64,000 nt of DNA from NCBI GenBank assembly GCA_964016885.1, contig OZ024746.1:23684001-23748000 (forward strand). The letters are read 5' to 3'. Source of the DNA: Eledone cirrhosa (Eukaryota). Below, one piece after another: positions 23,686 to 23,872 of the stretch (position 1 is the stretch's first letter; every line of letters begins with the position of its first letter). The notes below the pieces were generated by a model, which was given only the letters and a program-made list of their open reading frames with translations, did no database searches and was not told where the DNA came from. The translations under genes were made by a program, and so were the position numbers.

Positions 23686-23805
23686 AATAGGGATACATGA
23701 TATGAAGGTTAAAAAACACTTGTGAATAGTGAAGTTTTAAATCAACATATATAAAACTTCACTATTCACAAGTGTTTTTTAACCTTCATATCACGTATCC
23801 CTATT
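23686..23805. repeat. 54-bp inverted repeat (fold-back) with 12-nt spacer
   Basis: Arms 23686-23739 and 23752-23805, one mismatch. Confidence 0.92.
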
Positions 23806-23872
23806 TTATCTGACGAAAACGCAAATGTCATCTCATGATGATATTTGTTTTTGAAATGCGCATAATAAAATA
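23802..23872 (+). ncRNA. Minimal type-I hammerhead ribozyme (Penelope-like)
   Basis: tattttat-CTGACGA-long stem II (caaatgtcatc/gatgatatttg)-GAAA-tgcgca-TA-ataaaata; perfect 8-bp stem I and palindromic stem III (ATGCGCAT). Confidence 0.8.

Follow-up and report, generated by a model that had tools for sequence, protein, structure and literature searches.

A Hammerhead Motif and a Fold-Back in the Genome of Eledone cirrhosa Are Parts of One Insertion, Probably of a Penelope-like Element

Results

One Insertion Contains Both the Hammerhead Motif and the Fold-Back

A hammerhead motif and a fold-back that lie next to each other in the genome of Eledone cirrhosa belong to one element. This is probably a damaged, short insertion of a Penelope-like element (PLE) with Hydra-type motifs. 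In this reading, the hammerhead is part of the terminal repeat, the fold-back is the remainder of the mirror arm, and the arms were likely made as two cDNAs that were joined head to head. The window analysed here is a stretch of 64,000 nt (assembly GCA_964016885.1, contig OZ024746.1, positions 23,684,001 to 23,748,000, forward strand). Coordinates are counted from its first nucleotide, and L numbers denote loci fetched from the same genome.

A strict hammerhead scan of both strands of the window gives a single match, 23802-23872 on the + strand. It is a complete type I hammerhead, and the parts named beforehand in an earlier note on this DNA, including the 8-bp stem I, the palindromic stem III, and the predicted cut after 23864, were all found in place (Table 1). 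All eight pairs of stem I are formed, and all are A-U. Stem II spans 16 positions and is closed at its base by an A-U pair; its one mismatch is C-U, at position 4, and two of its pairs are G-U. GAA corresponds to 23853-23855. The conserved hammerhead core (positions 3-9, 12-14, A15.1-U16.1, and H17) is present. Canonical hammerhead numbering places the cut after A17. A local Rfam scan at E <= 10 matched no hammerhead family, and the 150 matches listed for the whole window, of 638, contain only low-complexity hairpin matches.

The fold-back has two arms of 57 nt, 23686-23742 and 23749-23805, which are 96% complementary. It had been described as a 54-bp inverted repeat abutting the hammerhead. 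The fold-back itself is there, but it is longer than stated and overlaps the first 4 nt of stem I, which pair in both structures. It is also not a separate attachment, as had been supposed. Its right arm is the beginning of the 164-nt arm (23752-23915) that holds the hammerhead, and the fold-back is the cut-down mirror arm of the same insertion. The same central junction is seen in the intact copy L004, there with a whole left arm.

Table 1. Features of the insertion and its surroundings in the window.
Feature	Position	Strand	Remarks
Adjacent copy of a different fold-back repeat family, internally deleted	23547-23687		
Left (mirror) arm remnant, pLTR unit positions 1-65, hammerhead and tail missing	23686-23750	-	Whole in intact sister copies
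Head-to-head junction	23746-23752		Left arm to the fixed turn point (+1), one extra A, right arm starting at unit position 12
Right arm, pLTR unit positions 12-175, tail-less	23752-23915	+	Ends at the upstream one of two fixed outer end points
Hammerhead stem I, 5' strand	23802-23809	+	Pairs with 23865-23872
Hammerhead catalytic core, positions 3-9	23810-23816	+	
Hammerhead stem II	23817-23852	+	3 bp, pyrimidine mismatch, 12 bp, 4-nt loop
Stem III, a palindrome of 8 nt	23856-23863	+	Predicted pairing only as dimer
Predicted cleavage site, after A17 (A23864)	23864-23865	+	Canonical hammerhead numbering
(TA)n target, right end	23910-23921	+	Sister copies likewise end in (TA)n

A search of the genome with 23680-23900 gave 615 candidates, and nearly all of the 40 scored match on both strands. 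Intact loci are palindromes of ~346 bp (~175+175 bp). Each of their arms contains a hammerhead, one side has in addition a tail of 80 bp, and both sides are flanked by (TA)n. Of 34 inverted pairs, 33 have a tail on one arm and none on the other; the exception is probably two insertions. Based on this one-sidedness, the simplest reading of the window copy is that most of its tail-bearing left arm was deleted later, although the left arm was possibly short from the outset. The left arm is joined to the end of the neighbouring fold-back repeat over a 2-nt microhomology. Compared with the window arm, the nearest long copies among the fetched loci have 7-9 differences in 150 positions. The window locus is without the upstream promoter region, and 18000-30000 contains no long ORF except simple-repeat frames. 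Among the contigs of four runs over 23300-24300, repeat copies predominated heavily, and no contig spanned the locus.

The Parent Element Encodes RT and GIY-YIG Domains

Genome-wide, the pattern of the architecture has 41,703 matches (20,945 + 20,758), or ~14 per Mb, and the reversed-pattern control has 0. With a further 7,327 matches of the other two hammerhead families of the window, the motif census bears out the high genome-wide density that had been expected.

Twelve regions with widely spaced hammerhead pairs were fetched to look for the parent element. Single ORFs of 775-821 aa lie beside the hammerhead in L063, L067, and L070, and fragments of this protein are found in most of the other regions. 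An intact ~800-aa RT/GIY-YIG ORF in L067 and L070 is directly preceded by the hammerhead arm and the tail, which are repeated at the 3' end. The arm is thus a pLTR, and the link to PLEs that had been proposed from the motif is supported by this ORF. Direct pairs are 3.7-3.9 kb apart. The distance from hammerhead to hammerhead is 3,676-3,940 bp in L067, L070, and L071, and the ORF occupies 2.4 kb.

The ORF of L063 contains an RWK-like motif (RWT or RWI), DKT, a CxCx5C linker, and GIY-YIG at the C terminus, with CxxC and CxH around the conserved E and N. Its neighbours in the ESM Atlas score 0.96-0.98, and in some of the clusters GIY-YIG is annotated on 26-50% and RVT_1 on 18% of the members. 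Searches of Pfam and of PDB sequences with the ORF gave nothing significant. Judged by its motifs, not by a tree, the element is a Penelope-like retrotransposon of Hydra-clade type. Its RT core has 49,172 candidates in the genome. The 129 that were scored are all 98-100% identical, many of them in 821-aa open frames, which indicates that the family is young. No RNA carrying the 3' UTR of the element was listed in a search.

Tandem duplications are seen within the 3' UTRs of L067 and L070, with units of 60, 111, and ~220 bp, and are not the same in the two copies. A full-length copy in L063 (1816-1817) starts immediately 3' of the downstream RT start site, where it abuts an inverted arm. The 5' end of its template was thus neither the start site nor the cut site.

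Stems of the Hammerhead Covary, and Stem III Is Predicted to Pair as a Dimer

From 54 hammerhead variants found in the stored loci, 25 distinct ones were chosen for diversity. Among them, 98.4% of cells are paired and 38 cells have changes on both sides; 0 of 500 shuffles were as high and no slid control was close, in a test that is inflated by relatedness and whose variants were selected by a pattern that keeps the core and most of stem I constant. The changes on both sides affect four of the six proximal pairs of stem II, one of the three pairs of stem III, and none of stem I, which is largely fixed by the pattern. Stems II and III therefore covary. The core is invariant, though the selection pattern fixed it, and the loop of stem II varies freely.

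The pair at the base of stem II is A-U in 19 variants, G-U in 5, and unpaired in 1, and it is never G-C. The A-U base that had been pointed out is thus real, but it does not represent decay of the window copy: A-U or G-U, shared by 24 of the 25 variants, is a trait of the family. An extra base before stem II is absent from all 25 variants and present in the other two hammerhead families of the window, which also differ from this one in the pair at the base of stem II.

Stem III has a predicted pairing probability of 0.0 in the monomer, and the palindrome duplex is predicted at -10.5 kcal/mol, in agreement with the dimer-type stem III assumed beforehand. The two motifs of tandem elements, 3.7-3.9 kb apart, could dimerise in cis. 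In read-through RNA that includes the left arm, the predicted probability of stem I is 0.0, and the predicted cost of the hammerhead fold is 9.7 kcal/mol with the left arm versus 4.6 without it. The window copy is likely to be misfolded and inactive, since the fold-back is predicted to abolish stem I and no hammerhead partner of the same family is seen in the window.

Some fold-backs turn at the predicted cut site (21 of the 50 listed, i.e. ~28 of 67), which is only ~2% of the ~1,740 turns at the start site described below. Full arms all hold the uncut motif with the sequence downstream of it and turns at the cut site are few, which indicates that the templates were mostly uncut. Exact turns at the cut site were seen in 10 of the 50 fold-backs listed (~13 of 67). 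Of two control sites, a comparable one of 2 bp gave 1 of 50, and one of 4 bp located downstream gave 5 of the 50 listed (of 164). Any excess over these sites is only an indirect hint of self-cleavage, because the anchors differ between sites.

Palindromes Turn at One Fixed Site

The loci examined are the best matches and the first matches on contig 1, and do not correspond to a random sample. About 1,740 palindromes turn at one fixed site, and their junctions vary. Different junctions at a common turn site indicate separate events. In the parent sequence, a pyrimidine run and C immediately precede the A of the turn point. A sister subfamily has, in its long copies, an initiator-like C|A that is preceded at 31 nt by a TATA box, and its short copies either turn or start at this C|A. 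The subfamily of the window has no TATA box at the 31-nt distance. The promoter of Penelope is located in the pLTR (PMC2377424). The fixed turn point, the TATA box of the sister subfamily, and the known pLTR promoter together suggest that the turn point is the transcription start of a capped RNA. The sister subfamily with the TATA box is seen in L044, L050, L102, L103, L104, and L106.

An extra C is found on both arms at the junction in 122 loci, versus 4 loci with the base that the parent would template. This signal is partly confounded: among the 50 C..G junctions listed, 28 read C-AT-G and 22 do not, and for C-AT-G an internal repeat located ~45 nt into the arm (23787-23795 in the window) could also have served as template. 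A second subfamily is without the internal repeat. There, the base following +1 at the ends of multi-base junctions is C in 23 of 50 cases, versus 9 each for G, A, and T (p ~0.001), in a tally by eye of the 25 multi-base loci among the 50 listed of 56, from which the 25 uninformative single-base junctions were excluded. Some junctions of this subfamily show internal fold-back templating. In a third subfamily, extra C is seen in 2 versus 3 loci, with no support for an excess. At full-length L1 junctions, an extra base reflects the cap (PMC11702581).

The two arms of L057, L072, and L109 cover parts of the unit that do not overlap, and neither can be a copy of the other; alternatively, such pairs could have arisen by later deletions inside palindromes. 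Altogether, the arms of L034, L046, L057, L072, L106, L108, and L109 either do not overlap or each contain sequence absent from the other. Loop-less perfect palindromes occur at 21 of the 51 junctions listed. The two arms of one locus differ on average at 2.0 positions in ~150 nt, versus 10.4 between loci, and of the private variants 10 are common to both arms of a locus and 42 are on one arm only. The likeness within a locus fits one RNA template, but it equally fits fold-back copying or gene conversion, and does not discriminate between them.

The fixed outer ends of the arms show two internal RT start sites ~80 nt apart. In vitro, a Penelope-like protein extends both strands, uses two internal start sites that bound the tail, and copies uncut RNA (PMC11167929).

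Discussion

How the Mirror Arms Might Have Arisen

The extra C, the arm pairs that could not have been copied from each other, the loop-less junctions, and the two start sites seen in vitro favour the joining of two cDNAs head to head over the self-priming proposed in PMC3846280. It is somewhat more probable than not that two reverse transcriptions start at fixed internal sites on a capped RNA and copy its cap, and that the cDNAs are then joined head to head, with no self-priming. Transcription of a capped RNA would begin in the upstream repeat, at the fixed turn point that precedes stem I by 61 nt. The endonuclease of the element would cut (TA)n, and both DNA ends could prime reverse transcription. 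Priming at the two internal sites ~80 nt apart would leave the tail on one arm only. If priming takes place on the 5' repeat, both cDNAs would run only 175 or ~255 nt to the cap. They would often gain a C there and would then be joined via microhomology or end joining. At the window locus, the outer ~190 bp of the tail-bearing arm might have been deleted afterwards. As a ribozyme, the hammerhead would be weak and dependent on dimers, and most of the RNA would still be uncut at the time of copying. At the window locus, it is predicted to be misfolded and inactive.

Self-priming would start from the same element. One cDNA would fold back and prime its own mirror arm, which in the window would have stopped after 65 nt and joined AT-rich target. 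It has been proposed for palindromic inverted junctions (PMC3846280) and would agree with several observations: the arms of a locus are very alike, with the 10 private variants in common, internal fold-back templating is visible in some junctions, and L081 likewise has a short left arm and a tail-less right arm. A hairpin primer can hardly produce a perfect palindrome with no loop, however, and this is what the 21 of 51 junctions listed are. Some junctions have the extra base on both arms, and the seven loci with non-overlapping or mutually unique arms also stand against copying of one arm from the other. Self-priming is therefore considered unlikely, and the joining of two cDNAs is the preferred reading.

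There are two further explanations. The unit might be a non-autonomous retrozyme or SINE-like element that is copied whole via a cleaved circular RNA and whose ends are determined by the hammerhead. Short copies are very many, some ~28 of 67 nearby fold-backs (21 of 50 listed) turn at the predicted cut site, and animal retrozymes have been described as non-autonomous derivatives of PLEs (bioRxiv 10.64898/2026.07.22.740005). The Eledone unit resembles animal non-LTR retrozymes (PMC7229834 and the same preprint) in being short and non-coding, in the type I hammerhead, and in the link to PLEs. Unlike them, it forms no tandem direct array here, its ends do not coincide with the cut site, and it is the pLTR of an autonomous element with an intact ORF. 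Besides, junctions vary by copy, and cut-site turns amount to ~2% of start-site turns, which makes a retrozyme quite improbable. An origin of the fold-back as a MITE, a fold-back DNA transposon, or a host hairpin RNA, with the hammerhead beside it separate or by chance, is scarcely credible. The hairpin is long and near-perfect, and weak microRNA-like matches in Rfam, under their gathering scores, could point to a host RNA. Yet the fold-back and the hammerhead are in one repeat unit in all intact copies, and a DNA transposon does not fit with the one-sided tail (33 of 34 pairs) and the variable centres. A hammerhead by chance is contradicted by the covarying stems and by 41,703 pattern matches versus 0 in the control.

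Comparison with Known Systems

The closest resemblance is to PLEs of the Hydra clade, including Hydra-1_Obim of octopus (Craig et al. 2021, PMC8557442). Shared features are a single ORF with RT and C-terminal GIY-YIG, the RW motif, DKT, CxCx5C linker, CxxC, and CxH, (TA)n targets, a type I hammerhead near the 3' end, and an inverted 5'-truncated partner with a one-sided tail. Compared by eye, Hydra-1_Obim matches in its motifs, while it is a different family by hammerhead and protein. The Eledone element is longer, 3.7-3.9 kb versus generally <3 kb, and has a longer tail, ~80 bp versus 30-40. It also differs by its tens of thousands of copies and many intact ORFs. Other Hydra motifs in File S2 of the same paper are also without G10.1-C11.1, and the origin of tandem and inverted structures is named there as an open task.

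The minimal and variant hammerheads of metazoan PLEs (Cervera and de la Pena 2014, PMC4209133) are likewise of type I, located in pLTRs, with a palindromic stem III and predicted dimer dependence. That hammerheads can lie as opposite-strand pairs at a distance of 100-700 bp, and can number in the thousands in a genome, was already described there. G10.1-C11.1 is called highly conserved in that paper, whereas the Eledone family has A-U or G-U in 24 of 25 variants. The Eledone hammerheads further differ in having no extra base before stem II, a 16-position stem II with a conserved pyrimidine mismatch at position 4, and a stem I of 8 A-U pairs. Their count of 41,703 is greater than the 9,000 given for Xenopus. 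Hammerheads have also been counted in squid (PMC6962438). The word 'ribozyme' does not occur in the main text of PMC13282606.

The Poseidon element PAc of Anolis, analysed in vitro (Frangieh et al. 2024, PMC11167929), also has two internal RT start sites bounding the tail, AT-rich targets, extension of both strands, and uncut RNA as the main template. It is from a different clade, and its tail is in the start of the ORF, whereas the tail of the Eledone element is in the 5' UTR. The formation of inverted junctions and a cap signature are not addressed in the available parts of that paper. L1 twin priming (PMC11702581) is similar in that two RT reactions from two DNA ends are joined by microhomology or end joining. 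The inverted parts of L1 are mostly adjacent and not duplicated, whereas in Eledone both cDNAs span the same stretch to the 5' end and a palindrome results. In a literature search, thin on subscription journals, neither a cap signature nor the joining of two cDNAs was found reported for PLEs.

The window locus itself is ordinary, probably a dead copy, and of a kind already known. The family is young, very abundant, and Hydra-type with many intact ORFs, and could be a good source for an in vitro system. Its junctions offer a testable alternative to self-priming for the inverted repeat. A stem II base of A-U or G-U, kept together with covarying stems although the copied RNA was mostly uncut, bears on the role of PLE ribozymes. 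If the joining of two cDNAs is true, one mechanism would account for the inverted repeat, for the tail on a single arm, and for the palindrome at the junction, and this genome would be a natural record of Penelope-like insertion, thousands of events deep. Then the start site and the rarity of hammerhead cleavage could be mapped from DNA alone.

Other Repeats in the Window

The window had been suggested to contain at least three independent ribozyme-bearing families. The hammerhead at 23802-23872 indeed shows no significant DNA similarity to the other two (~32007-32065 and ~43450-43495). These two resemble each other, with 87% identity over 62 nt of the tail, and have together the 7,327 pattern matches in the genome. 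Because they share tails, the window contains two lineages rather than three.

The second fold-back, 31733-32313, lies in (TA)n and has a one-sided tail. Its intact hammerhead is on the + arm only (core at 32012) and has the extra base of textbook hammerheads and G-C at the base of stem II. The left arm is without the start of the core. The third fold-back, 43143-43705, has hammerheads on both arms (cores at 43455 on the + and 43337 on the - strand). The fold-back family of 23547-23687, also seen in L010 (1736-1960), L026, and L030, has a one-sided tail too. Its fuller copies contain a stretch similar to the hammerhead core, with A for U4, followed by a short hairpin and GAAA.

A copy of a very abundant SINE-like repeat, which we take to be typical of octopus genomes, is located at 23926-24124. 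A 21-bp tandem array of ~26 copies occupies 24920-25463. Within an AT-rich microsatellite region, a block of ~3.26 kb is duplicated at 48092-52836.
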